Source of the DNA: Lysobacterales bacterium
GTDB taxonomy: Bacteria > Pseudomonadota > Gammaproteobacteria > Xanthomonadales > SZUA-36
NCBI GenBank assembly: GCA_037384065.1
Contig: JARROJ010000021.1
Span: 20,383-84,382, forward strand
Reading direction: 5' to 3'
Length of the DNA: 64,000 nucleotides
Part shown: positions 1 through 63,134 of the stretch, one piece after another
How positions within the stretch are numbered: the first letter of the stretch is position 1
How the letters are laid out: each line of letters starts with the position of its first letter
Notes under the pieces: generated by a model
Database searches by the model: none
Told to the model about the DNA's origin: nothing
Seen by the model: the letters and a program-made list of their open reading frames with translations, nothing else
Made by a program: the position numbers and the translations under genes

Positions 1-1284
1 CCGTTCGGGCGCCTCCTCGGCCAGCGTCACGGCCGCCTGCACTTCGGCGGCCGCACGTTGCCAGTCTTCCTCATTCGCGGCGTGCACGACCGCCAGCCGG
101 GAGCCGGCCTCGATCGCGGCGCCAGGCTCGGGCAACCCGCTCAGACCGACCGCCGGATCGATCCGGTCTTCGGACCGCTGGCGTCCGCCGCCGAGGCCGA
201 CCACGGTCCAACCGATCGCACGCGCGTCGATCGCGGCCAGGTAACCGGACGACGAAGCATCGACCGGGCGCACCACCGCGGCCCGCGGCAGATAATGTCC
301 GGGCCGCTCCAACAGATCGGCCGGGCCGCCCTGAGCCGCCACCGTTCGCGCGAACGCGGCCGCGGCCGCACCCGAGGCCAGGGATCGCCGCGCCCGGTCC
401 CGGCCCGCCTGCGGCGTTTCCGCCAGTGCGCCCATGTGCAGCAGTTCCCCCGACAGCGCCGTGATGACGTCGTACAGGCGACCGTCGGTGCTGTCGCCCT
501 GCAGGATGCGAATGGCCTCCCCGATTTCCAGCGCGTTGCCGGCGACCGGCGCCAGCGGCGCATTCATGTCGGTCAGCAGGGCGCTGCAACGCACCCCCGA
601 TTCGGCCGCCACCCGGGTCATTTCGCCGGCCAGCGTGCGCGCCGCGCCGATCGTCGGCGTGAACGCCCCGCCGCCGAACTTGATGTCGAGCACCAGTCCG
701 TCGAGGCCCTCGGCCAGCTTCTTTGAAAGGATCGAGGAAATCATCAGCGGCGGTGAATCGACGGTGGCGGTAATGTCCCGCACCGCGTAGATTCGACGGT
801 CCGCCGGCGCCAGTTCGTCGGTCTGCCCGACGATCGCGAGCCCGTTTTCGCGAACGAGGCGGGTAAACCGCTCGATTTCGAGCGCGGTCGTAAAGCCCGG
901 AATGCTTTCCAGTTTGTCCAGCGTGCCGCCGGTATGGCCAAGCCCGCGGCCGGAGATCATCGGCACGTATCCGCCCGACGCGGCGATGATGGGGCCGAGC
1001 ACCAGGCTCACCAGGTCGCCGACGCCGCCGGTCGAATGCTTGTCCAGAACCGGCCCGTTGAGCCCGGACCAGGACAGCACGCGACCGGAATCCCGCATGG
1101 CCCGGGTCAGGAGCGACTGCTCGAGAACGGTCATGCCCGTGAACCAGGTCGCCATGGTGAACGCCGCGATCTGCGGATCAGTCACGCTGCCGTCGCGGAT
1201 GCCCTCGACGAACGCCCGGATTTCGGCCTCGTTCAGGGGCGCGCGGTCGCGCTTCTTGCGAATGATGTTTTCAGCCCTGAACAC
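1..1284 (-). CDS. deoA: Thymidine (pyrimidine-nucleoside) phosphorylase, 3' end truncated by the window edge
   Basis: The minus-strand frame is open from position 1 to a GTG at 1284. My own translation gives VFRAENIIRKKRDRAPLNEAEIRAFVEG at the N-terminus, KHSTGGVGD (c. 1014-1040) and ISGRGLGHTGGTLDKLE (c. 900-960). It is missing from the ORF track because the stop lies beyond the window. Confidence 0.9.
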   Translation of the reverse strand, partial: MFRAENIIRKKRDRAPLNEAEIRAFVEGIRDGSVTDPQIAAFTMATWFTGMTVLEQSLLTRAMRDSGRVLSWSGLNGPVLDKHSTGGVGDLVSLVLGPIIAASGGYVPMISGRGLGHTGGTLDKLESIPGFTTALEIERFTRLVRENGLAIVGQTDELAPADRRIYAVRDITATVDSPPLMISSILSKKLAEGLDGLVLDIKFGGGAFTPTIGAARTLAGEMTRVAAESGVRCSALLTDMNAPLAPVAGNALEIGEAIRILQGDSTDGRLYDVITALSGELLHMGALAETPQAGRDRARRSLASGAAAAAFARTVAAQGGPADLLERPGHYLPRAAVVRPVDASSSGYLAAIDARAIGWTVVGLGGGRQRSEDRIDPAVGLSGLPEPGAAIEAGSRLAVVHAANEEDWQRAAAEVQAAVTLAEEAPER

Positions 1285-11152: not shown

Positions 11153-12469
11153 ATGAAACGAATGTCGACCGCACTGCGACGCCCCGCCCCGCTCCTGGCC
11201 GTTCTGCTGACACTGAGCCCGGGGCCGGCGACGGGCGCGCCACCGGAAAATGACGCGCCGACGGACACCCGCGACGACGCGCGGTCGCTGACCCTCGAAG
11301 ACCTGCGCGCCTTCAGCGACGTCTTCAACCAGGTGCGCCGCAACTTCGTCGACACAGTGGATGAACGGGACCTGATCCAGGCGGCGATCCGCGGCATGCT
11401 CTCGGAACTGGATCCGCACTCGGCCTATCTGGCCGTGGATCAGTATCGCGATCTGGACGACGTGTCGCGCGGCCGCTACGGCGGGGTCGGCATCCGCCTG
11501 AACACGCGCGACGGCAAAATCCGTGTCGACGCCGTGATCAACGGCAGCCCGGCGGACCGGGCCGGCATCGACGTCGGCGACATCATCACGGCGGTGGATG
11601 ACGTCCCGGTGCGGGGCCGGCCGCTCGCCGAAACACTCGAGGGCATCGACGGCGAACCCGGCAGCACCGTGCGGCTGAGCGTCCAGCGTCCGGGACAGCC
11701 GCCGCGCGACGTCACGCTGGAGCGGGAGTTCATCAAACTGCCGACCCTGTCCTACCGCCCCCTGAGCCGGGGCTGGGGCTATTTCCGGATCAGCCAGTTT
11801 CACCGGGACAGCGCCACCGACCTGGCGGCCGCGCTGGCGTCCATTCGCGACGACGGCACCGAACTGGCGGGGCTCGTGCTGGACCTGCGCGGTAACCCGG
11901 GCGGCGTGCTGCAACCGGCCATCGACATCGCCGACGGCTTTCTCGACAGCGGGCGTATCGTATCGACGCGCGGCCGCAATCCCTCGACCCGGATGGAATT
12001 CGACGCCGCGCCCGGCCAGTGGCTGCCGGGCCGCCCAATCGTCCTGCTGGTCGATCGGCGCAGCGCTTCGGCCGCCGAGGTCCTCGCCGGCGCGCTGCAG
12101 GACCACCACCGTGCGCTGATCGTCGGCGAACGGACGTTCGGCAAGGGCTCGGTGCAGTCGGTGCTGCCGCTCCGCAACGGCGGCGGCATCAAGCTCACGA
12201 CGGCGCTCTACTACACACCGAGCGGGCGATCGATCCAGGCGGAAGGCATCGTGCCGGATGTGGCGCTCGATCTGAATGACGATCTGAACACAAACCGAAC
12301 CGAAGGGCGCGAAGCGGATCTTGCCGGCCATCTGCCGGCGGAAACCGGTGCCGACCCCTCGGCGGATCACTTCATGACGGGCGAATCCGGGTTTCCGTTG
12401 CAGGAGATCATGGCCGTGCTGGACGACGCCGGCCTGCTGGCGGACGACGCCCCGGCCGGAAGCGACTGA
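11153..12469 (+). CDS. S41 family carboxy-terminal processing peptidase
   Basis: Signal peptide, PDZ region (GIRLNTRDGKIRVDAVINGSPADRAGI), LVDRRSASAAEV and GERTFGKGSVQ. A GAGGA Shine-Dalgarno sequence precedes the ATG. Confidence 0.85.
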   Translation: MKRMSTALRRPAPLLAVLLTLSPGPATGAPPENDAPTDTRDDARSLTLEDLRAFSDVFNQVRRNFVDTVDERDLIQAAIRGMLSELDPHSAYLAVDQYRDLDDVSRGRYGGVGIRLNTRDGKIRVDAVINGSPADRAGIDVGDIITAVDDVPVRGRPLAETLEGIDGEPGSTVRLSVQRPGQPPRDVTLEREFIKLPTLSYRPLSRGWGYFRISQFHRDSATDLAAALASIRDDGTELAGLVLDLRGNPGGVLQPAIDIADGFLDSGRIVSTRGRNPSTRMEFDAAPGQWLPGRPIVLLVDRRSASAAEVLAGALQDHHRALIVGERTFGKGSVQSVLPLRNGGGIKLTTALYYTPSGRSIQAEGIVPDVALDLNDDLNTNRTEGREADLAGHLPAETGADPSADHFMTGESGFPLQEIMAVLDDAGLLADDAPAGSD

Positions 12470-12838: not shown

Positions 12839-13525
12839 TCAAAGGCGAATGTGGAAAAGACCGCGGGCAAGAAAGGCGAAGCTCAACCCGAGGGCAAATC
12901 CCGCCAGGTGCGTCCACCATGCCACAGTCGCATTTATGGGGCCGAAGGCCGTGTAAAGCAACTGCAGCGTGAACCAGGAGCCGATCACGATGACCGCGGG
13001 CACGCGGGCGAACTGGAGGTACAGACCGAGCGGCAGATAGAGCCCGATGCGACGCCGGGGAAACAGCCCGAGGTAGGCGCCGACGACCGCGGAGACCGCG
13101 CCGCTCGCGCCGATGATCGGCGTCGTCAGCGAAGGCAGCCGCAGGGCGACGATGACGTTGGCCAGCGCGCCACCGAGCAGCAGCACGACGACCAGGCCGG
13201 CGGCGCCGACCCGGCGCTCCACGTTCATGCCGAAGACCCAGAAGAACACGAGATTGCCCAGCAGGTGCAACCAGTTCGCGTGAATCAGCAGGGCCGTGAC
13301 GAGACTCAGCGCGGACACGTCCCACCAGCCGGTCGCCGGGCCATGCAGCAGGGCCGCCATCCGGGCCGGCTCCATGCCCGCCACTTCGATCATCACCTGT
13401 TGCCGGATCGGGCTGAGCCCCGAGTAGATGAAAAACATGAAGCAGGCGACGGCGATGAACCCGATCGCCGCGTAGGGCGGCCGAGGCGGACGGTCCGACC
13501 AGGCCGTAACGACACCGTCACGCAA
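12839..13525 (-). CDS. Rhomboid-family intramembrane serine protease
   Basis: Multi-TM protein with HANWLHLLGN, GASGAVSAVVGAY (catalytic Ser) and WWTHLAGF (catalytic His). The start is a TTG. Confidence 0.85.
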   Translation of the reverse strand: MRDGVVTAWSDRPPRPPYAAIGFIAVACFMFFIYSGLSPIRQQVMIEVAGMEPARMAALLHGPATGWWDVSALSLVTALLIHANWLHLLGNLVFFWVFGMNVERRVGAAGLVVVLLLGGALANVIVALRLPSLTTPIIGASGAVSAVVGAYLGLFPRRRIGLYLPLGLYLQFARVPAVIVIGSWFTLQLLYTAFGPINATVAWWTHLAGFALGLSFAFLARGLFHIRL

Positions 13526-35660: not shown

Positions 35661-36917
35661 ATGAACCTCACAGAACTGAAACAGAAACCGATTTCCGAAT
35701 TGCTCACGATCGCCGATGAAATAGGGCTCGAAGGCGTTGCGCGAACGCGCAAGCAGGACATCATCTTTTCCATCCTCAAGGCGCATGCCAAGAGCGGTGA
35801 AAGCATCTTCGGGGATGGCGTACTCGAAATCCTGCAGGACGGATTCGGTTTCCTGCGCTCCGCCGACAGTTCCTACCTGGCCGGCCCGGACGACATCTAC
35901 GTCTCGCCCAGCCAGATCCGGCGCTTCGCCCTGCGCACCGGCGACATGCTGTCGGGAAAGATCCGGCCGCCGAAAGACAGCGAGCGCTATTTTGCCCTGC
36001 TCAAGGTCCAGGAGATCAATTACGAATCGCCGGAGGCCGCCAAGCGCAAGATCCTGTTCGAAAACCTGACGCCGGAATTTCCGACCCAGCAACTCACGCT
36101 GGAGCGCGGTTCGGGCAGCACGGAAGACATCACCGCGCGGATCATCGACCTCGTGTCCCCGATCGGCAAGGGCCAGCGCGGCCTGGTCGTCTCACCGCCC
36201 AAAGCGGGCAAGACCATCATGCTGCAGAACATCGCGACCAGCATCCGGGCCAACGCCCCGGACTGCAAGATGATCATTCTGCTGATCGATGAGCGCCCCG
36301 AGGAAGTGACGGAAATGAAGCGCTCGGTCGACGCCGAGGTCATCTCCAGCACCTTCGACGAACCGGCCTCGCGCCATGTCCAGGTCGCCGAGATGGTCAT
36401 CGAACGGGCCAAGCGGCTGGTCGAACACAAGCACGACGTGGTGATTCTGCTCGACTCCATCACGCGTCTCGCCCGCGCGTACAACACGGTCGCCCCGTCG
36501 TCCGGCAAGGTTCTGACCGGTGGTGTGGACGCCAATGCGCTGCAGCGTCCGAAACGGTTCTTCGGCGCGGCGCGCAACGTTTCCGAGGGCGGTTCGCTGA
36601 CCATTATCGCCACCGCGCTGGTCGATACCGGTTCGAAGATGGACGAGGTGATCTACGAGGAGTTCAAAGGCACCGGCAACATGGAGGTTCACCTGAGCCG
36701 CCGCATCGCGGAACGCCGCACCTACCCCGCGATCGACATCAACCGCTCGGGCACGCGCCGCGAGGAGCTGATGATCGGCCAGGATCAACTGCAGAAGGTC
36801 TGGATTCTGCGCAAGCTGCTGCACCCGATGGACGAGGCCCAGGCCATCGAGTTCATGCTCGACAAGCTGAAGGCCACCAAGACCAACGCCGAATTCTTCA
36901 ACTTCATGAAACGGTGA
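35661..36917 (+). CDS. rho: Transcription termination factor Rho
   Basis: ATG at 35661 ([15 protein letters not shown]). Motifs GFGFLR, Walker A PPKAGKT and LIDERPEEV. Confidence 0.97.
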
Positions 36918-39253
36918 CCCGGCTGCGCAGAATTCTCGCGCCGCTGATCCTGGGGCTTGCATCCGTCCAGGCCGGAGCGGACCCGGGCGGCCTGCTCGAC
37001 CTGGACATCGACCCGGACACCGGACGGGTCGAACTCGCGTTCGAAACGCTACCCGCCGATTACCTGTACGTCACCGGACTGCAAACCGGGGCCGGGTCCA
37101 ACGACCTGGGCTTTGACCGCGGCCAGCTGGATCGGACGCGCCTGGTTCGCTTCGAGCGGTTCGGCAACCGGGTCCTGCTGATCGAGCCCAACCTCGCGTT
37201 CCGTGCGCGCACGGATGATGCGTCCGAACGCCTCGCGGTCGAACAGGCGTTCGCGCAGTCGGTCCTGGCCGGTTTCGAGGTCGTCGACAGCGAACGCCCC
37301 GGTGTGCGCATCGACCTGACGCCGTTCCTGCTCTCGGACGCGCCACGTCTCGCGGCCCGCATCCGCGAACTCGAACAGGGCGAATTCAGCATCGACCCCG
37401 AGCGTTCCGCGGTCGACCCCTCCGCCGTGCGTAATTTCCCGGACAACGCGTTACTGCCGGCGGTCATCACGTTTGCCGGTAAAGAGCCCGGGGCATTCAT
37501 TCGCGACGTCACCCCAACCCCGGATTCGTTGTCGATCCGCCTCACGCACCAGTTCATCCGTCTGCCCGACGACGGTTACCGGCCGCGCGCGTTCCATCCG
37601 CGCTCCGGGTTTTTCGCGCTCGCGTTTCGCGACTATGCGGCCCCGCTGGACCGCGAGGTCGAACAGCGATTCATCTACCGCCACCGCCTGGCGCCCGGCG
37701 AAACGCTGCGCTACTACGTCGATCCCGGCGTGCCCGAGCCGGTGCGCAGCGCGCTGCTCGAGGGCGCATCCTGGTGGCGCGAGGCGTTCGCCGAGGCAGG
37801 CTTTGCAAACGGATTCGCCGTCGACGTTCTGCCGGCGGACGCGGACCCGCTGGATGCCCGTTACAACGCGATCCAGTGGGTGCATCGGGCCACGCGGGGC
37901 TGGTCCTACGGCTTCAGTATTTCCGACCCCCGGACCGGCGAAATCATCAAGGGCCACGTGAGCCTCGGCTCCCTGCGGGTCCGCCAGGATCAGCTCATCG
38001 CGGAAGCCCTGACCGCGCCGTTCACGGCGCCGGGAGACCGATCCGAAGCCGCGCAGAACATGGCGCTGGCCCGCATCCGGCAACTGGCCGCCCACGAAGT
38101 CGGTCACACGCTGGGAATCGACCACAATTTCGCCGCGTCCTTTTCCGGGGACGCCTCGGTCATGGATTATCCGCATCCGAACCTCTATCTCGGCGACGAT
38201 GGACGGGTGCGTCTCGACCGCGCCTACGCGCGCGGCGTCAGCCCCTGGGACAAGCTCACGATCCGCTACGGTTACGGCGTCTTTCCCGCGGACCGCGAAC
38301 CGGCTGCGCTGGACGACATCCTCGCCTCGGCCCGGCGCCAGGGCATCGGCTTCCTCGGCGACCAGGACGCGCGGCCGCCCGGCAGCGCCCATCCAGACGC
38401 CCACCTGTGGGACAACGGCGGCGATGTCCTGGCGCGGCTCGACGAAGTGATGGCCATCCGCCGCATCGGGCTCAGTAATTTCTCGCCCGCGGTGATCGAT
38501 TTCGGCACGCCGTTGTTCGAAATGGAACGAAAACTGGTCCCGGTATTCCTGTTGCACCGCTACCAGCTGGAGGCGACGGCCAAGCTGCTGGGCGGCCTGA
38601 GGTACGGTTATGCCGTGCGCGGTGACCGCGACACGGTCCTCGCGCCCGTCAGCGGCGAGGTGCAGCGCCGGGCGCTCACCGCCCTGCTCGGCCTGCTCGC
38701 ACCCGAACAGCTGGCCCTGCCGCCGTCGCTGCGCTATCTCATTCCGCCGCCGCCCCTGGAGCACGCACGCGACCGTGAATTCTTTGGCGGAACCACCGGC
38801 GCGCCCTTCGACCACCTCGCACCGGCGCGAGCGGGGGCGGAACTGGTCATTCGGGAACTCCTGCAACCGCAGCGGCTCGCGCGCCTGCACGAACAGCAGT
38901 CGCTCGATCCGGGCCTTCCCGGCCCGGACACCGTCATCGACGGTCTGCTGCAAGCCACCTGGCTCGCGAAACCGGAACGGGACACCTACCTCGAAGCGAT
39001 TCGCAGCGAGACGGGCTGGCCGGTTCTGAGCGAGCTGATGCGACTGGCGTCGACGGAAACCGAAAGCGATGCCGTGCGGGCGACCGCGCTCGCTACGCTG
39101 CTGCGGCTGGAACGGGAACTGGACGGCGCCGCGCACCGCCGCAGCCACGCCGCCACGGCGGCGCGCCAAAAGATTCGCGCCTTCCTCGAAAACCCGGCGG
39201 GCGGCCTGCCGATCCAAGAGCAACGGGTGCCGCCGGGCTCGCCGATCGGCTGA
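36914..39253 (+). CDS. Secreted zinc-dependent metalloprotease (DUF5117/DUF4953-type zincin)
   Basis: The GTG start overlaps the rho stop (GTGA). It has a signal peptide ([15 protein letters not shown]) and the HExxH-containing [16 protein letters not shown]. 779 aa. Confidence 0.75.
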
Positions 39254-52242: not shown

Positions 52243-52749
52243 TCAGATCCTGTCGCGTCGGTTGTAAATCAAGAGACCGATGGTACCCACTGTGAACACC
52301 GTATACCAGACAAACGTCCAGCCCGGCATGCTGAGGCCGAGGAACTGCCAGATCACTTCGGCGCATTCGCCCGAGCCGTAGAAAACCTCGTTCAGCACGT
52401 CGGTGAAGGGCATCGTTTCGAGCATGTAGTTCAGCCCCATCCCGCAGTCGGGCACCTGGTCGGCAGGCAGGCTCTGCAGCCACAGGTGACGCCCGGCGAT
52501 GAGCATGCCGGCGATGCCGCCCAGGATCACGAGGAGTGCGTAGAACCAGCGCCCGGTGCGACCCGGACCGTGTACGGCGCCGACCAGCGCGACCGCGCCG
52601 ATGAACATGAACGTGACGCGCTGGAACACACACAGCGGACACGGGTCCAGGAAGTCGACGTGTTGCACGTACAACGCGTAGGAAACCATGCCGAAACACG
52701 CCAGGGCGACGATGAAAAACCAGACTCGGGGCCGGAACAGTAAACTCAC
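52243..52749 (-). CDS. dsbB: Disulfide bond formation protein DsbB
   Basis: This is the 3' tail of the ORF-track entry 52243..54576. The GTG at 52749 follows GAGGA (7-nt spacing). It has four TM helices, CPLCVFQR and a second Cys pair (VPDCG...GSGECAE). Confidence 0.85.
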   Translation of the reverse strand: MSLLFRPRVWFFIVALACFGMVSYALYVQHVDFLDPCPLCVFQRVTFMFIGAVALVGAVHGPGRTGRWFYALLVILGGIAGMLIAGRHLWLQSLPADQVPDCGMGLNYMLETMPFTDVLNEVFYGSGECAEVIWQFLGLSMPGWTFVWYTVFTVGTIGLLIYNRRDRI

Positions 52750-60029: not shown

Positions 60030-60575
60030 CTACCCGCGATAGCGTATCGCTGCGAGACCCGCCATCAGGAAGGTCAGAATAATCAGGCCCGGCATTGAAA
60101 GTGTCGGCACGGGCGTAGCCTCGACGGGTGCGACCACCGCGGTCGAACGTTCGGTCGTGTCCTCCGGGCCGTCGCAATCGAAGTCATCCAGATCGACAAA
60201 CCCGTCGTTGTCGTTGTCGATGCCGTCGCTGCACTGGGTCGGCGACTCGGTGGCGTCCTCGCTGTCGACGCAGTTGAAGTCATCCAGATCGACGAAACCG
60301 TCGTTGTCGTTGTCGATGCCGTCGCTGCACTGGGTCGGCGATTCGGTGTCGTCGTTACTATCGACGCAGTTGAAATCCTGCAGATCGATGAAACCATCGT
60401 TGTCGTTGTCGATACCGTCGCTGCATTCGGTCTGCGCAAGGGCCTGGGTGCTAAAAATCAGCAACAGCGCAACAAGCGCAATTTTTGATGATCGCCAGAA
60501 GGCTTTTCGAACAGCTTTCGCGGGGAAAAGTGGATCAAGAACCCGGGTTACGAAACGTGCCTGCATCCTTTGCAT
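60030..60575 (-). CDS. Secreted repeat protein: three Cys-bracketed Asp-rich (Ca-binding-like) modules plus an IPTL-CTERM-type C-terminal sorting tag
   Basis: ATG at 60575 with an AGGAGG Shine-Dalgarno sequence 8 nt upstream. Signal peptide ...SSKIALVALLLIFSTQALA/QTE. Three copies of (E/Q)CSDGIDNDNDGF(I/V)DL(Q/D)DF(N/D)C. The C-terminus VPTLSMPGLIILTFLMAGLAAIRYRG gives the motif, a TM helix and basic residues. Confidence 0.7.
   Translation of the reverse strand: MQRMQARFVTRVLDPLFPAKAVRKAFWRSSKIALVALLLIFSTQALAQTECSDGIDNDNDGFIDLQDFNCVDSNDDTESPTQCSDGIDNDNDGFVDLDDFNCVDSEDATESPTQCSDGIDNDNDGFVDLDDFDCDGPEDTTERSTAVVAPVEATPVPTLSMPGLIILTFLMAGLAAIRYRG
60180..60434. repeat. Tandem 96-bp coding repeats (2 full units plus 1 partial, more divergent unit)
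   Basis: Units 60180-60275 and 60276-60371 differ at about 8 of 96 positions by hand alignment. The third unit (60372-c. 60434) is more diverged. Each unit encodes one 32-aa module. Confidence 0.9.
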
Positions 60576-60794
60576 GGTGAATCCTCCTGGTCTGTTTCGC
60601 CCGTTACCGGCGCCCGAACAGAGCGGCCGAGGAGCGGAATCAGTTGAACGGCATGCTACAGACATTTCGGAAGGGCGTCCAATTCAAGGTTGATTTCCGG
60701 AATCTTTTCGGGCGTTGACCGATCACATCGCGGGCCTTCAGATCGCCGATCTTCAATAAAACCGGGCAATCGTTCGTTTTAACCATTCCTGAAG

Positions 60795-61012: not shown

Positions 61013-62899
61013 CTAGGGCGTATACCAGATGGGGCTCGTATAAGCCCGGTCGGTTACTGCCATGGCGGTGCCTTCCGGCATCTCGATCCCGAAATACTTG
61101 GCGTCGTAAGCGGTCCAACGGGGTGTCGGAATCTCGATGACCCGAACGTAATAGAATGCCTTGAGTCCGGAATCGAAATCAGGATCCTTCCAGTAGCCGG
61201 AAAGGACGGCCGAGCCGATCGTATTCGTGTAGGTCGCATTCGCGACGTCGACGGTGTTGCCAACGGAGTCGTGGGCACGGCCGTCAGCGCCGATCTCGCG
61301 GCCACCCGAAACGGCCACGTCATAAATTCGCTCGTGCAGGTCCCCACGCTTGTCGAGCCAGCCCTTGATGATCTGGATGCGGTCCAGGTTCGCGCCATCC
61401 GGATCGCGCAGTGCGCGAACCATGAAACTCGGCGCAGCACCTTCCGGGCCGGGGAGAAGATCGCCGCCCATTGGAACACCCCGGGCATAACCCTGCTGGG
61501 CGAAGTCGGGGCGTTGAACCTCGGAGGGTTCGAAATCCCATCCAGCGAAGACGCGGACGCGCAGGCGAGTGCCTGTAGTGGCGTAAACCTCACGCCTGGC
61601 GAAGGCGTCCCAGATAGCCTCGCGGGTATTTTCAACGGCCCATGCGGCAGCGAGGCCCGAGGCACCCAGGTCGATGTCTCGAATGGAGTAAGCAGGATCG
61701 ACCGGGCTTTCAATGAAGTAGCCGTCACGGCGATGCGGTGAGGGCTCCACGAAGTGAATCTTTCCGAACCAGTTCTCCTCCCGCGTCGACGGGATGGCGT
61801 TATGGCTGTCGGTCGAGCCCACCATGCCGAACTTGAACGGATTCACGCCCACGCGAGCCTCCTCCGCCAAACCGAGTTTCAGCGCCTCACGGGCGTACTC
61901 TGTTCGCAGCATCTCCGGCGTCTTCGGCTCCGTGCCCGTGAGGTTCGACTTGTCCATGAGTTCAAAGTCCGCGAACTCGTCTTCCGGTGAGAGCAGTGGG
62001 TGCGCTTCGCTGGTGCCCTTGGGCTGGGTGACTTCGACAACCCGCTCGAAACGCTGGCGCCGTTTGGCGTAGTCCTTGTCGAAGCGCTTACCGTCAAATG
62101 TTTCGAGCATGAACATCATCCCGTTGGACAAGTTGCCGTTGTGCGGTATGGCGAAGACCCTGCCCCCGGTTTTGCTTTCGTACGCATGGAGGTATTCCCA
62201 GAGGTCTTCCGGATCATCGCTGTCGAAGGCGGAGAACGGCACCACTTGCCGGGTGCGATCCTTCCCGTCCCGGAAGATGACGTTGCGGTGCAGGTTGTTG
62301 CTCCCCGGCCCGGATGTCCACTCATAGCCGATAAAGGTGGTGAAGACACCCGGCTGGTTGAAGCGTTCCGCGTTCTCAATCACCCGTTCCCAGACCCGTG
62401 AGCGCATCTCGGCGCTGTCGATGGGATCCTCGCCCTTTGCATTGAACGCGCTCCACTCATAGGCAGCCTTGATCCCTTCGCCCGCATTGAAATACTCGAG
62501 CCATTTCCGCCCATTCTCGCTCTTCTTGAGGAGAGGGTCTCCACGGTCCAGGTAGTCGTATATCCCGAGGTTCTCGGCATGGTCCGCAACGACCACGAAA
62601 TCGAGCGGGCGGACGAGCTTGAAGGGCAAGCCCGTCTGGCTGGTCACCTGCTCGCCTCGCGCAACCCGGTAGGCAAACTCCGGCCCAAGTGTCGCGCCCG
62701 CGAGACCGGCATCCGCCGACCAGGAGGTGTGCAGGTGGGTGTCGCCGAAGTAAACCTGCTGTGGAAAATCCTGATCGACGTAGGGCGAATAATGCTCGAC
62801 TTTTCCCGAGTGGCTGCCGTCGGGCACGGTAAATTCCTGCGCGACACCGAGCGTAGCCGGGAGGACCAGAAATGCGGAAATCGAAACAAGAAATTTCAT
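61013..62899 (-). CDS. Secreted DUF3604-family protein (putative metal-dependent hydrolase)
   Basis: ATG at 62899 (MKFLVSISAFLVLPATLGVAQE signal peptide). Motifs FGDTHLHTSWSADA, VVADHAE, IGYEWTS, AIPHNGNLSNG, GSTDSHN and C-terminal RAYTSPIWY. The family assignment is from memory of the DUF3604 pattern. Confidence 0.78.
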   Translation of the reverse strand: MKFLVSISAFLVLPATLGVAQEFTVPDGSHSGKVEHYSPYVDQDFPQQVYFGDTHLHTSWSADAGLAGATLGPEFAYRVARGEQVTSQTGLPFKLVRPLDFVVVADHAENLGIYDYLDRGDPLLKKSENGRKWLEYFNAGEGIKAAYEWSAFNAKGEDPIDSAEMRSRVWERVIENAERFNQPGVFTTFIGYEWTSGPGSNNLHRNVIFRDGKDRTRQVVPFSAFDSDDPEDLWEYLHAYESKTGGRVFAIPHNGNLSNGMMFMLETFDGKRFDKDYAKRRQRFERVVEVTQPKGTSEAHPLLSPEDEFADFELMDKSNLTGTEPKTPEMLRTEYAREALKLGLAEEARVGVNPFKFGMVGSTDSHNAIPSTREENWFGKIHFVEPSPHRRDGYFIESPVDPAYSIRDIDLGASGLAAAWAVENTREAIWDAFARREVYATTGTRLRVRVFAGWDFEPSEVQRPDFAQQGYARGVPMGGDLLPGPEGAAPSFMVRALRDPDGANLDRIQIIKGWLDKRGDLHERIYDVAVSGGREIGADGRAHDSVGNTVDVANATYTNTIGSAVLSGYWKDPDFDSGLKAFYYVRVIEIPTPRWTAYDAKYFGIEMPEGTAMAVTDRAYTSPIWYTP

Positions 62900-63134
62900 G
62901 GAACAGCCACCTGCCAAATCTGAACGTTCGGCGAGAGTAGCACAACGCGCCAATTTCGTCGTTCGCGCGAGCGTCCGCTTCGGACCGATTTGAGACGTAC
63001 AACGTGCTCAACGGGCCCCGCATTCTGGTTCCGGTTACCGCACAAAAAAGGATACACCCCGCAAGGCCGGGGATTGCGGAGATGGCGATGATCGCTGACA
63101 ACCCAAGCGCACCCGCGTTCTGAATCCTGCCCTG

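Follow-up and report, generated by a model that had tools for sequence, protein, structure and literature searches.

The window analysed here is a 64-kb stretch of DNA from a gammaproteobacterium of the order Xanthomonadales/Lysobacterales, a host represented by MAGs alone. It contains a complete gene for a protein of 181 amino acids (Table 1), located on the minus strand; the first-pass annotation had given no strand. The product consists of a signal peptide followed by three 32-aa acidic modules with two Cys residues each, and it ends with a tail made up of VPTLS, a helix and RYRG. The protein is 100% identical to the NCBI protein P8Y54_08850 of a Xanthomonadales MAG, annotated only as a "hypothetical protein", and the gene is found in identical form in two MAG contigs. 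Promoter/terminator and Rfam scans around the gene gave nothing above background.

Table 1. Features of the gene and its product, with positions in the 64-kb window.
Feature	Positions	Strand	Description	Basis
Complete coding sequence	60030..60575	minus	181 codons plus stop codon at 60030-60032	ORF listing and translation
Shine-Dalgarno sequence	60583..60588	minus	AGGAGG, 7 nt 5' of the ATG at 60573-60575	read from the sequence
Predicted Sec signal peptide	60435..60575	minus	residues 1-47	long basic n-region, core IALVALLLIF, A-L-A/Q site
Acidic repeat 1	60339..60434	minus	residues 48-79, QTECSDGIDNDNDGFIDLQDFNCVDSNDDTES, Cys pair C51/C70	NF033662, TRF, unit alignments, 7PLP mapping
Acidic repeat 2	60243..60338	minus	residues 80-111, PTQCSDGIDNDNDGFVDLDDFNCVDSEDATES, Cys pair C83/C102	NF033662, TRF
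Acidic repeat 3	60147..60242	minus	residues 112-143, PTQCSDGIDNDNDGFVDLDDFDCDGPEDTTER, Cys pair C115/C134	NF033662, TRF
Linker rich in Ala/Val/Thr/Pro	60114..60146	minus	residues 144-154, STAVVAPVEAT	length variable among orthologues (alignment)
Tripartite tail	60033..60113	minus	residues 155-181, (P)VPTLS, hydrophobic helix MPGLIILTFLMAGLAAI, basic end RYRG	PF18203, AF2 helix

The minimal open reading frame picked out in the first-pass annotation is conserved in relatives. Its orthologues are P0002, P0003, P0004, P0005 and P0006, and dN/dS values obtained with three of these (P0002, P0004 and P0005) are 0.15–0.29. The gene is under purifying selection; it is real as well as conserved, with a small product that is predicted to be exported. 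Export is indicated by the N-terminal Sec signal peptide, which the same annotation had proposed and which was judged here by eye from the sequence; its basic n-region, hydrophobic core and ALA/Q site are common to the orthologues, which have the same N-terminal layout as the 181-aa protein. In the AF2 model, residues 19–42 form a helix.

The gene is convergent with feoB and lies 153 bp from its end, with feoAB adjacent. The neighbourhood is conserved in the closest relative/strain only, and the genes for P0004 and P0005 are in unrelated neighbourhoods without feo genes. DsbB is also encoded in the window. As the first-pass annotation had noticed, exosortase, rhombosortase and sortase-like genes are not adjacent, and they are absent from the entire 64-kb window as well. 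A rhomboid gene at 12839-13525 was considered as a rhombosortase and rejected (33.4 bits against 84). A second IPTL-like tail was not found in the window or in ∼6 kb more of this organism, so that one tail in total is present there. No processing enzyme for IPTL-CTERM proteins is named in the literature searched, where IPTL-CTERM barely figures, and nothing there contradicts the statement of the first-pass annotation that no such enzyme is established. The locus had been put forward as a good handle for identifying the sorting machinery. With no sortase-like gene nearby, a neighbourhood kept only in the closest strain and a single tail in the window, it offers no real leverage on a sorting enzyme; without a neighbouring enzyme, conserved synteny or multiplicity at this locus, the IPTL-CTERM processing enzyme is as inaccessible as before.

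At the amino acid level, residues 48–143 show the exact motif that the first-pass annotation quoted for three 32-aa modules. Tandem Repeats Finder detects a period of 96 nt with 2.8 copies, 88% matches and a score of 395. The ∼32-aa unit has the pattern C-x-D-G-x-D-N-D-x-D-G-x-x-D-x-x-D-x-x-C, within which the ladder D-G-x-D-N-D-x-D-G-x-x-D is complete in all three repeats and has columns that are invariant, or nearly so, in unit alignments. In 107 residues of the protein, 35 are Asp or Glu. One relative (L002/P0002), which is 94–96% identical, is without repeat 2. A curated family for this repeat exists, NF033662, of which the first-pass annotation was unaware. The match to this family is 77.3 bits against a cut-off of 41 (E = 5.3e-22) and falls in three stretches that cover profile positions 3–28 of 32.

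The name of the NF033662 family, together with four-Cys members such as P0018, implies a criterion of four Cys residues, i.e. two disulfides per ∼32-aa unit. Here each repeat has Cys at positions 0 and 19 alone; there is a Leu at position 14, and no fourth Cys. Thus the protein is classed with the two-Cys subtype, or as a relative, of NF033662 and not among its canonical members. The two-Cys subtype is common among family matches. When the protein was used to scan JGI metagenomes and a set holding a single genome for each species, the matches were all distant repeat proteins whose repeats were no more than 62% identical; among them there was no tailed orthologue besides L109, and no conserved neighbouring enzyme was seen.

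A relationship to a solved structure is seen when profiles of the unit are compared with the PDB. The only significant match of the two-Cys profile is the teneurin C-rich domain (7PLP, E = 3.5e-4). With the four-Cys profile, 7PLP is matched at E = 9.2e-7 and all other teneurins at E ≤ 1.8e-3. The 1.5 Å structure of the teneurin-4 C-rich domain has three Ca2+ ions bound via E835, D840, D843, D845, D847, D851, D854 and D856, as well as N844, and a C838–C857 disulfide (PMC9058538). Two of the Ca2+ sites are thrombospondin type-3-like, and the domain as a whole was described as unlike other known folds (PMC9058538). D840, D843, N844, D845, D847, D851, D854 and both Cys residues have equivalents in all three repeats. 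The D856 equivalent is Asn, Asn and Asp in repeats 1, 2 and 3, respectively, and that of E835 is missing. Six to seven of the eight acidic Ca2+ ligands, together with C838 and C857, are therefore conserved in the repeats.

An AF2 model of a single repeat has a pLDDT of 93, and the top three Foldseek matches of this model in the PDB are all teneurin-4, with an rmsd of 1.4 Å over 22 columns for 7PLP; the E-values (3.5–5.2, probability ∼0.2) are not significant because the module is tiny. The full-length AF2 model gave no Foldseek match in the PDB. The first-pass annotation had described loops of the Ca2+-binding type, rich in Asp and each closed by two Cys residues, and this description agrees well with teneurin-4 as the best solved relative, since C838–C857 and the thrombospondin type-3-like sites appear to map onto the repeat. 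Of the three resemblances that it suggested for the loops, the one to thrombospondin type 3 is retained via the teneurin Ca2+ sites. The other two are not: the protein has no Excalibur match at E ≤ 10, and the MopE motif PF11617 is unmatched in the protein and reaches its threshold only in the relative P0012.

A metal other than Ca2+ was also considered for the acidic modules, with a function either in iron handling with the adjacent feoAB or in lanthanide binding. The lanthanide option comes from the likeness of the loop D-N-D-N-D-G-F-I-D-L-x-D to lanmodulin EF loops. For iron, the convergent arrangement with feoB is suggestive, but it is not shared by P0004 and P0005. For lanthanides there is a weak LanM match (E = 0.056, 13.5 bits against a cut-off of 135), but this is not significant and is mostly over the signal peptide, and an identity with lanmodulin was rejected. 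In addition, the ligand set fits the solved Ca2+ site residue for residue. A role with another metal is very unlikely.

The C-terminal end of the protein presents a different set of signatures. The final 27 residues are PVPTLSMPGLIILTFLMAGLAAIRYRG, and here VPTLS is followed by a 17-residue hydrophobic stretch and by RYRG at the protein end, with residues 161–180 helical in the AF2 model. The succession of motif, transmembrane helix and basic cluster that had been read from the sequence is thus present, with a basic cluster that is weak and has two Arg only. Assignment to the IPTL-CTERM class is only partly borne out. The tail passes the Pfam IPTL-CTERM model PF18203 (25.7 bits against a gathering threshold of 20.8, E = 1e-5), but with TIGR04174, the model named in the first-pass annotation, it fails by 3.6 bits (16.9 against 20.5). 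The P0002 tail likewise passes PF18203 and fails TIGR04174, and P0003, P0004 and P0006 are below the cut-off in both models. VP(T/V/A)LS, followed by ∼18–24 residues that comprise a hydrophobic helix and a basic end, is nevertheless kept in all four tailed orthologues. Membership of the tail in IPTL-CTERM is therefore borderline, as the distant orthologues keep the motif yet fail both models.

Other members of the cargo family add to this picture. VPxLS is conserved in P0003, P0004 and P0006, and also in L109, a protein from another metagenome that is otherwise different. It is at least 486 aa long, has ∼13 repeats and carries a VPVLS tail that scores 20.1 against 20.8 with PF18203. P0005 has no tail, the archaeal homologue P0032 has a PEF-CTERM tag (TIGR03024, 31.5 against 23), and further cargo homologues have Cys-containing tails. 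Among the attributes listed for tripartite sorting signals, the tail fits attributes 1, 3–6 and 8 (bioRxiv 10.1101/2023.06.07.544157). Attribute 8 refers to cargo homologues that are tailless or have another sorting signal; attributes 2 and 7 refer to several unrelated proteins that share one tail in a genome (10.1101/2023.06.07.544157).

One alternative takes the tail for a divergent signal of the exosortase type (PEP-CTERM-like), processed by an exosortase encoded elsewhere in the genome. This is based on matches of P0001, P0002, P0003 and P0006 to NF033207 (midcut-by-XrtH) with E-values of 3e-4 to 0.03; the matched profile region, 28–63, presumably corresponds to the internal sorting-signal segment. 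The scores are 14–21 bits against a cut-off of 45, however, the P-E-P motif is missing, no PEP-CTERM model is matched even at E ≤ 10, and the 64-kb window has no exosortase. An exosortase-type signal is highly improbable.

A second alternative is simpler. The tail may be a permanent anchor and the protein a bitopic inner-membrane protein that shows its Ca2+-binding acidic domain to the periplasm, in which case there is no cleavage and no sorting enzyme, and the likeness to IPTL-CTERM is superficial. The TIGR04174 score below the cut-off, the failure of three of the four other tailed orthologues in both IPTL models, the two Arg after the helix, the single such tail in 64 kb and the lack of a sorting enzyme nearby are all consistent with a plain anchor. 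Yet V-P-x-L-S, which lies where the helix begins on its outer side, does not vary among orthologues whose linker and helix sequences differ, and it recurs on L109, a cargo of unrelated length. The Pfam match (E = 1e-5) and the bona fide PEF-CTERM tag on the same cargo repeat in the archaeal homologue also speak against a plain anchor. A permanent anchor is unlikely.

The preferred reading, to which a probability of roughly 0.6 is given, is that of a small cell-envelope protein that is exported by Sec, has disulfide-closed Ca2+-binding acidic modules and carries a tail that is most likely an IPTL-CTERM-type sorting signal. The protein would be exported via Sec and its N-terminal signal peptide cleaved. 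Oxidation in the periplasm would then form one disulfide per module (C51–C70, C83–C102 and C115–C134), as homology to C838–C857 of teneurin-4 suggests. Each module is predicted to wrap at least two Ca2+ ions, and possibly three, on the basis of ligand-by-ligand conservation with the teneurin C-rich domain; the candidate ligands are the Asp/Asn ladder C-x-D-G-x-D-N-D-x-D-G-x-x-D-x-x-D-x-x-C and a trailing D-x-x-E. The product may take the form of a rigid stalk, short in length and extremely acidic. The VPTLS-helix-RYRG tail would at first serve as an inner-membrane anchor, its Arg residues on the inside. In the weakest step of the scheme, a putative dedicated membrane enzyme encoded elsewhere may recognize the tail near VPTLS and pass the acidic domain to the cell surface, by analogy with other sorting signals. 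Among IPTL-CTERM proteins, the S-layer protein of Methylomirabilis has been localized to the cell surface (PMC8671808). The 181-aa protein probably has a Ca2+-dependent part in the envelope, as a structural element, a spacer or a binder of cations, and it is unlikely to be an enzyme.

Both the repeats and, though only as a borderline case, the tail belong to families that are already catalogued, and the protein is a fairly ordinary member and not a new kind. A "hypothetical protein" gains a defensible description, namely that of an exported protein of acidic repeats, disulfide-stabilized and predicted to bind Ca2+, whose tail is IPTL-CTERM-like. Of possibly greater use than the gene itself is the finding that one and the same repeat is combined, as cargo, with three or more C-terminal sorting tags of different kinds, which marks it as a generic surface-display module. 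Perhaps the VP(T/V/A)LS-helix-basic tails form a distinct subclass of sorting signals with its own processing enzyme, the minimal protein being the simplest natural substrate. This is suggested by the marginal or lower scores of this tail and of those of P0003, P0004, P0006 and L109 in both IPTL-CTERM models, which may place them outside current models. The proposal is quite unlikely, but if true it would make the family a clean query for finding the enzyme by phylogenetic profiling.

Several known systems resemble parts of this protein. The tail is similar to IPTL-CTERM in its location at the extreme C-terminus, in VPTL as a counterpart of IPTL, in the transmembrane helix followed by basic residues, in the accompanying N-terminal signal peptide and in the gammaproteobacterial host. 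It differs in that the TIGR04174 cut-off is missed, orthologue tails with VPVLS or VPALS fail both models and the basic cluster is short. The PEP-CTERM/exosortase, PEF-CTERM/archaeosortase, MYXO-CTERM/myxosortase and GlyGly-CTERM/rhombosortase systems have a different motif, and none of their models is matched by the tail at E ≤ 10; the 64-kb window encodes no enzyme of any of these four classes. They have in common with the tail the design of motif, helix and basic cluster.

The repeats also resemble EF-hand, dockerin and thrombospondin type-3 loops, in that D-x-D-x-D-G-x-I-D-x-x-D fits the canonical 12-residue Ca2+ loop. EF-hand matches in Pfam and the PDB are weak, with all scores below gathering thresholds. 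In contrast to EF-hands, flanking helices are absent and a disulfide holds the loop instead. With NF033662 the protein shares the ∼32-aa unit, the extreme acidity and the secreted-protein setting, but it has one disulfide per unit rather than two. Clustered at 50% identity, the proteins found with the profile of the unit make up at least 17,871 clusters, and most members of the family are 500–3000 aa in length and have as many as 46 matched stretches each, whereas here there are three repeats and nothing else.

Teneurin offers the closest structural comparison, and differences are evident here too. Residues 834–871 of human teneurin-4 are present as a single copy with six Cys residues, three disulfides (1-3, 2-5 and 4-6) and a conotoxin-like C-terminal half. 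The bacterial repeats match the N-terminal 20–28 residues only, three times over, and have only the pair equivalent to Cys 1-3. One is part of a eukaryotic adhesion receptor and the other of a small bacterial protein. What may outweigh the gene itself in usefulness is the homology between a widespread prokaryotic repeat family and that part of the teneurin C-rich domain, its N-terminal half, which binds Ca2+.

The 181-residue protein is a minimal combination of two building blocks that are already catalogued, an acidic repeat from a very large family and a C-terminal tail; the domain identities of repeat and tail are given a probability of about 0.9. The first-pass annotation described the small three-module protein accurately, and the strand, which it left unstated, is minus. 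The repeat array has a period of 96 nt, 2.8 copies and 88% matches (Tandem Repeats Finder), with 72-84% DNA identity among the three units. Of the 107 residues of the predicted ectodomain (48-154), 28 are Asp, 7 are Glu and one is Arg; Lys is absent. Two ORFs in other frames are artefacts of the GC-rich periodic repeat, and their mis-calling as genes could occur.

Features of the protein, its surroundings and a related metagenomic locus (window coordinates unless stated)
Feature	Position	Strand	Remarks
Protein ORF	60030-60575	-	181 codons; ORF listing and translation
Ribosome-binding site AGGAGG	7 nt before ATG	-	direct reading of sequence
Predicted signal peptide MQRMQARFVTRVLDPLFPAKAVRKAFWRSSKIALVALLLIFSTQALA	followed by QTE...	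-	long basic n-region, hydrophobic core, Ala-Leu-Ala cleavage-type site
Repeat units 1-3	residues 48-79, 80-111, 112-143		32 residues each
Linker	between units and tail		11 residues, Ala/Val/Thr/Pro
C-terminal tail			PVPTLSMPGLIILTFLMAGLAAIRYRG
Other-frame ORF	60157-60693	+	178 aa, Ser/Thr-rich
Other-frame ORF	60083-60439	-	118 aa, Ser/Thr-rich
Secreted DUF3604 protein	61013-62953	-	directly upstream, same strand, 437-bp gap
dsbB	52246-52749	-	
DUF5117/DUF4953 protein	36914-39253	+	779 aa; between rho and prpD; no NCBIfam match
Rhomboid-family intramembrane protease	12839-13525	-	stand-alone; PF01694, 88 bits
S41 C-terminal processing protease	11153-12469		
Repeat protein, contig L109	2-1462	+	at least 486 aa
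FG-GAP repeat lipoprotein, contig L109	1480-2820		follows repeat protein
Multi-pass membrane protein, contig L109	2820-3653		matches O-antigen ligase (Wzy_C) weakly and sub-threshold, E = 9e-4

The gene is real and conserved. Its product is 100% identical to the MAG protein P8Y54_08850, and a second MAG contig (GCA_037384005.1) has 99.1-99.9% identity to the window. Conservation in relatives, on which the first-pass reading depended, is borne out by the orthologues P0002-P0006, with dN/dS values of 0.15 against P0002, 0.17 against P0004 and 0.29 against P0005. On L002, the JGI contig of the closest relative (94-96% DNA identity), P0002 equals the protein minus exactly one repeat, a difference of one 96-nt unit across 60147-60434. 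Among the more distant orthologues, P0006 has a single repeat, P0003 and P0004 have two and P0005 has three, a range of 1-3 units. Since strains that are 94-96% identical differ by exactly one unit and orthologues by up to two, the array expands and contracts in frame.

The NCBIfam model of the acidic double-disulfide repeat, NF033662, matches three stretches of the protein with 77.3 bits (cut-off 41), and the module therefore already belongs to a curated family. Two subtypes are present among 429 units from the 120 best homologues: one has four Cys, at 0, 14, 19 and 25-31, and the other has two, at 0 and 19 or 20. The units described here are of the two-Cys form, and thus one disulfide per unit is predicted, not two. 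A D-x-x-E motif after the second Cys is nearly invariant in this subtype and, as judged from sequence, may provide extra ligands. A search with the two-Cys unit profile yields 17,871 clusters (50% identity) at E <= 1e-3, of which 6,699 reach E <= 1e-10; a single protein can carry as many as 46 matched stretches. The family is represented in Myxococcota, Bdellovibrionota, candidate-phyla-radiation bacteria, Methanosarcinales and DPANN archaea, and most of the proteins concerned are 500-3000 aa long. In the homologue P0032, the repeat is joined to the archaeal PEF-CTERM tag (TIGR03024, 31.5 versus 23 bits); the repeat thus recurs as cargo in different C-terminal sorting systems. Other repeat-bearing homologues (P0012, P0047, P0048, P0092, P0108 and P0118) display, at their C-termini, a conserved C-G-[LV]-G-x-E motif, a hydrophobic helix and 4-5 Arg, e.g. 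SCGLGTELVLVLPLLGTLRRRRRAA. No sorting-signal match was found in NCBIfam/Pfam for P0012, P0048, P0092 or P0108 at E <= 1. This tail may represent a tripartite sorting signal, one containing Cys, that still lacks a model.

The tail of the protein itself had been likened to IPTL-CTERM, with TIGR04174 named as the model. The Pfam model PF18203 recognizes it (25.7 bits, threshold 20.8, E = 1e-5), but TIGR04174 does not (16.9 bits, threshold 20.5, E = 0.0056); the P0002 tail behaves the same way, and both models fail on the tails of P0003 (VPVLS...), P0004 (VPTLS...) and P0006 (VPALS...). Membership is borderline. All tailed orthologues have V-P-x-L-S plus 18-24 residues, with a hydrophobic helix and short basic end; linker and helix sequences vary and the V-P-x-L-S design is kept. 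Measured against Haft's list of attributes for tripartite sorting signals (bioRxiv 10.1101/2023.06.07.544157), the tail shows C-terminal location, conserved motif, helix and basic end, the protein has a signal peptide, and there are homologues without the tail (P0005) or with another tag (P0032). It is the only such tail in the window. Weak, sub-threshold matches to the midcut-by-XrtH model in four orthologues are read as generic similarity among tripartite signals. A Methylomirabilis S-layer protein that carries IPTL-CTERM is localized to the cell surface (PMC8671808); no processing enzyme for IPTL-CTERM is named in the literature searched. On the metagenome contig L109 (68% GC), a different cargo, a protein with about 13 two-Cys repeats, likewise ends in VPVLS, a helix and RR, and scores 20.1 bits with PF18203 (GA 20.8). 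An FG-GAP protein, as on L109, is also found near P0004 on its contig.

Gene order near the locus is rpoA, rplQ, the DUF3604 gene, the repeat gene and, convergently, feoB and feoA, followed by hutI, hutH, hutU, dsbB, DAHP synthase and bipA. Elsewhere the window carries housekeeping genes: ribonucleotide reductase, secB, the cox operon, gcvP, rpoH, ftsEX, rho and the methylcitrate genes. The DUF3604 protein has no NCBIfam match; its counterpart on L002 shares 95.5% identity and remains a neighbour of the repeat gene. L002 is the sole relative that keeps this adjacency, and P0004 and P0005 lie amid unrelated genes. The first-pass annotation correctly saw no exosortase, rhombosortase or sortase gene next to the locus, and neither these nor CPBP genes are present within the 64-kb window. 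The rhomboid protease, which adjoins DUF1820 and the S41 protease, was rejected as a rhombosortase (33.4 bits, cut-off 84) and as GlpG (34.5 versus 250). With no candidate sorting enzyme in the window and a neighbourhood kept only in the closest relative, the locus lacks the leverage on sorting machinery once expected of it. Overall, the first-pass interpretation is partly supported: the Ca2+-loop reading is well supported and the IPTL-CTERM part is borderline.

The protein would be exported by Sec, its three loops closed in a Dsb-dependent manner and loaded with Ca2+ to give a rigid acidic stalk, which would be retained through the C-terminal helix. Probable processing at VPTLS, by an enzyme encoded elsewhere, is put forward as a candidate final step; C-terminal processing of the tail is a tentative proposal, at slightly under even odds.

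Among the likenesses first suggested for the modules, Excalibur is unsupported by the Pfam scan, and MopE is weakly right, as PF11617 reaches threshold solely in the relative P0012 and not in the protein itself. The likeness to a thrombospondin type 3 loop closed by a Cys pair was correct. The protein sequence gives only weak EF-hand matches among all PDB sequences, via the DxDxDG loop. The sole significant PDB relative of the unit profiles is the C-rich domain of teneurins: 7PLP (teneurin-4) is matched by the two-Cys profile at E = 3.5e-4 and by the four-Cys profile at E = 9.2e-7. The latter also matches teneurin-2, -3, -4 and fly Ten-m (E <= 1.8e-3), and nothing in PDB besides teneurins. Every solved teneurin is matched by the four-Cys profile (7PLP, 7BAM, 8FIA, 8R50 and 6CMX), with E between 9e-7 and 2e-3. 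AlphaFold2 gives mean pLDDT of 84-92 for the repeat blocks of the full-length protein and 93.2 for one unit alone. The full-length model has zero Foldseek matches in PDB. The top three for the one-unit model are teneurin-4 (on 7PLP, rmsd 1.4 A over 22 columns, 55% identity), with E-values of 3.5-5.2, which for a module of this small size do not reach significance. In the papers examined on a bacterial origin for teneurins, no link with NF033662 is mentioned.

The 1.5 A structure of the teneurin-4 C-rich domain, a domain that the structure paper describes as resembling no other known fold as a whole, has three fully coordinated Ca2+, two of whose sites resemble thrombospondin type-3 repeats (PMC9058538). 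The ligands are E835, D840, D843, D845, D847, D851, D854, D856, N844 and three backbone carbonyls, and C838-C857 is among the disulfides (PMC9058538). In the HMMER alignment of 22 teneurin residues with xxCSDGIDNDNDGF(I/V)DLxDFxC, C838 and C857 are the Cys pair of each unit, and D840, D843, N844, D845, D847, D851 and D854 are present in all three. D856 corresponds to Asn, Asn and Asp in units 1-3 and C852 to Leu, and E835 is without a counterpart. By homology, each unit is probably a disulfide-closed loop for at least two Ca2+. These alignments establish homology between the prokaryotic NF033662 family and the N-terminal half, which binds Ca2+, of the C-rich domain in metazoan teneurins.
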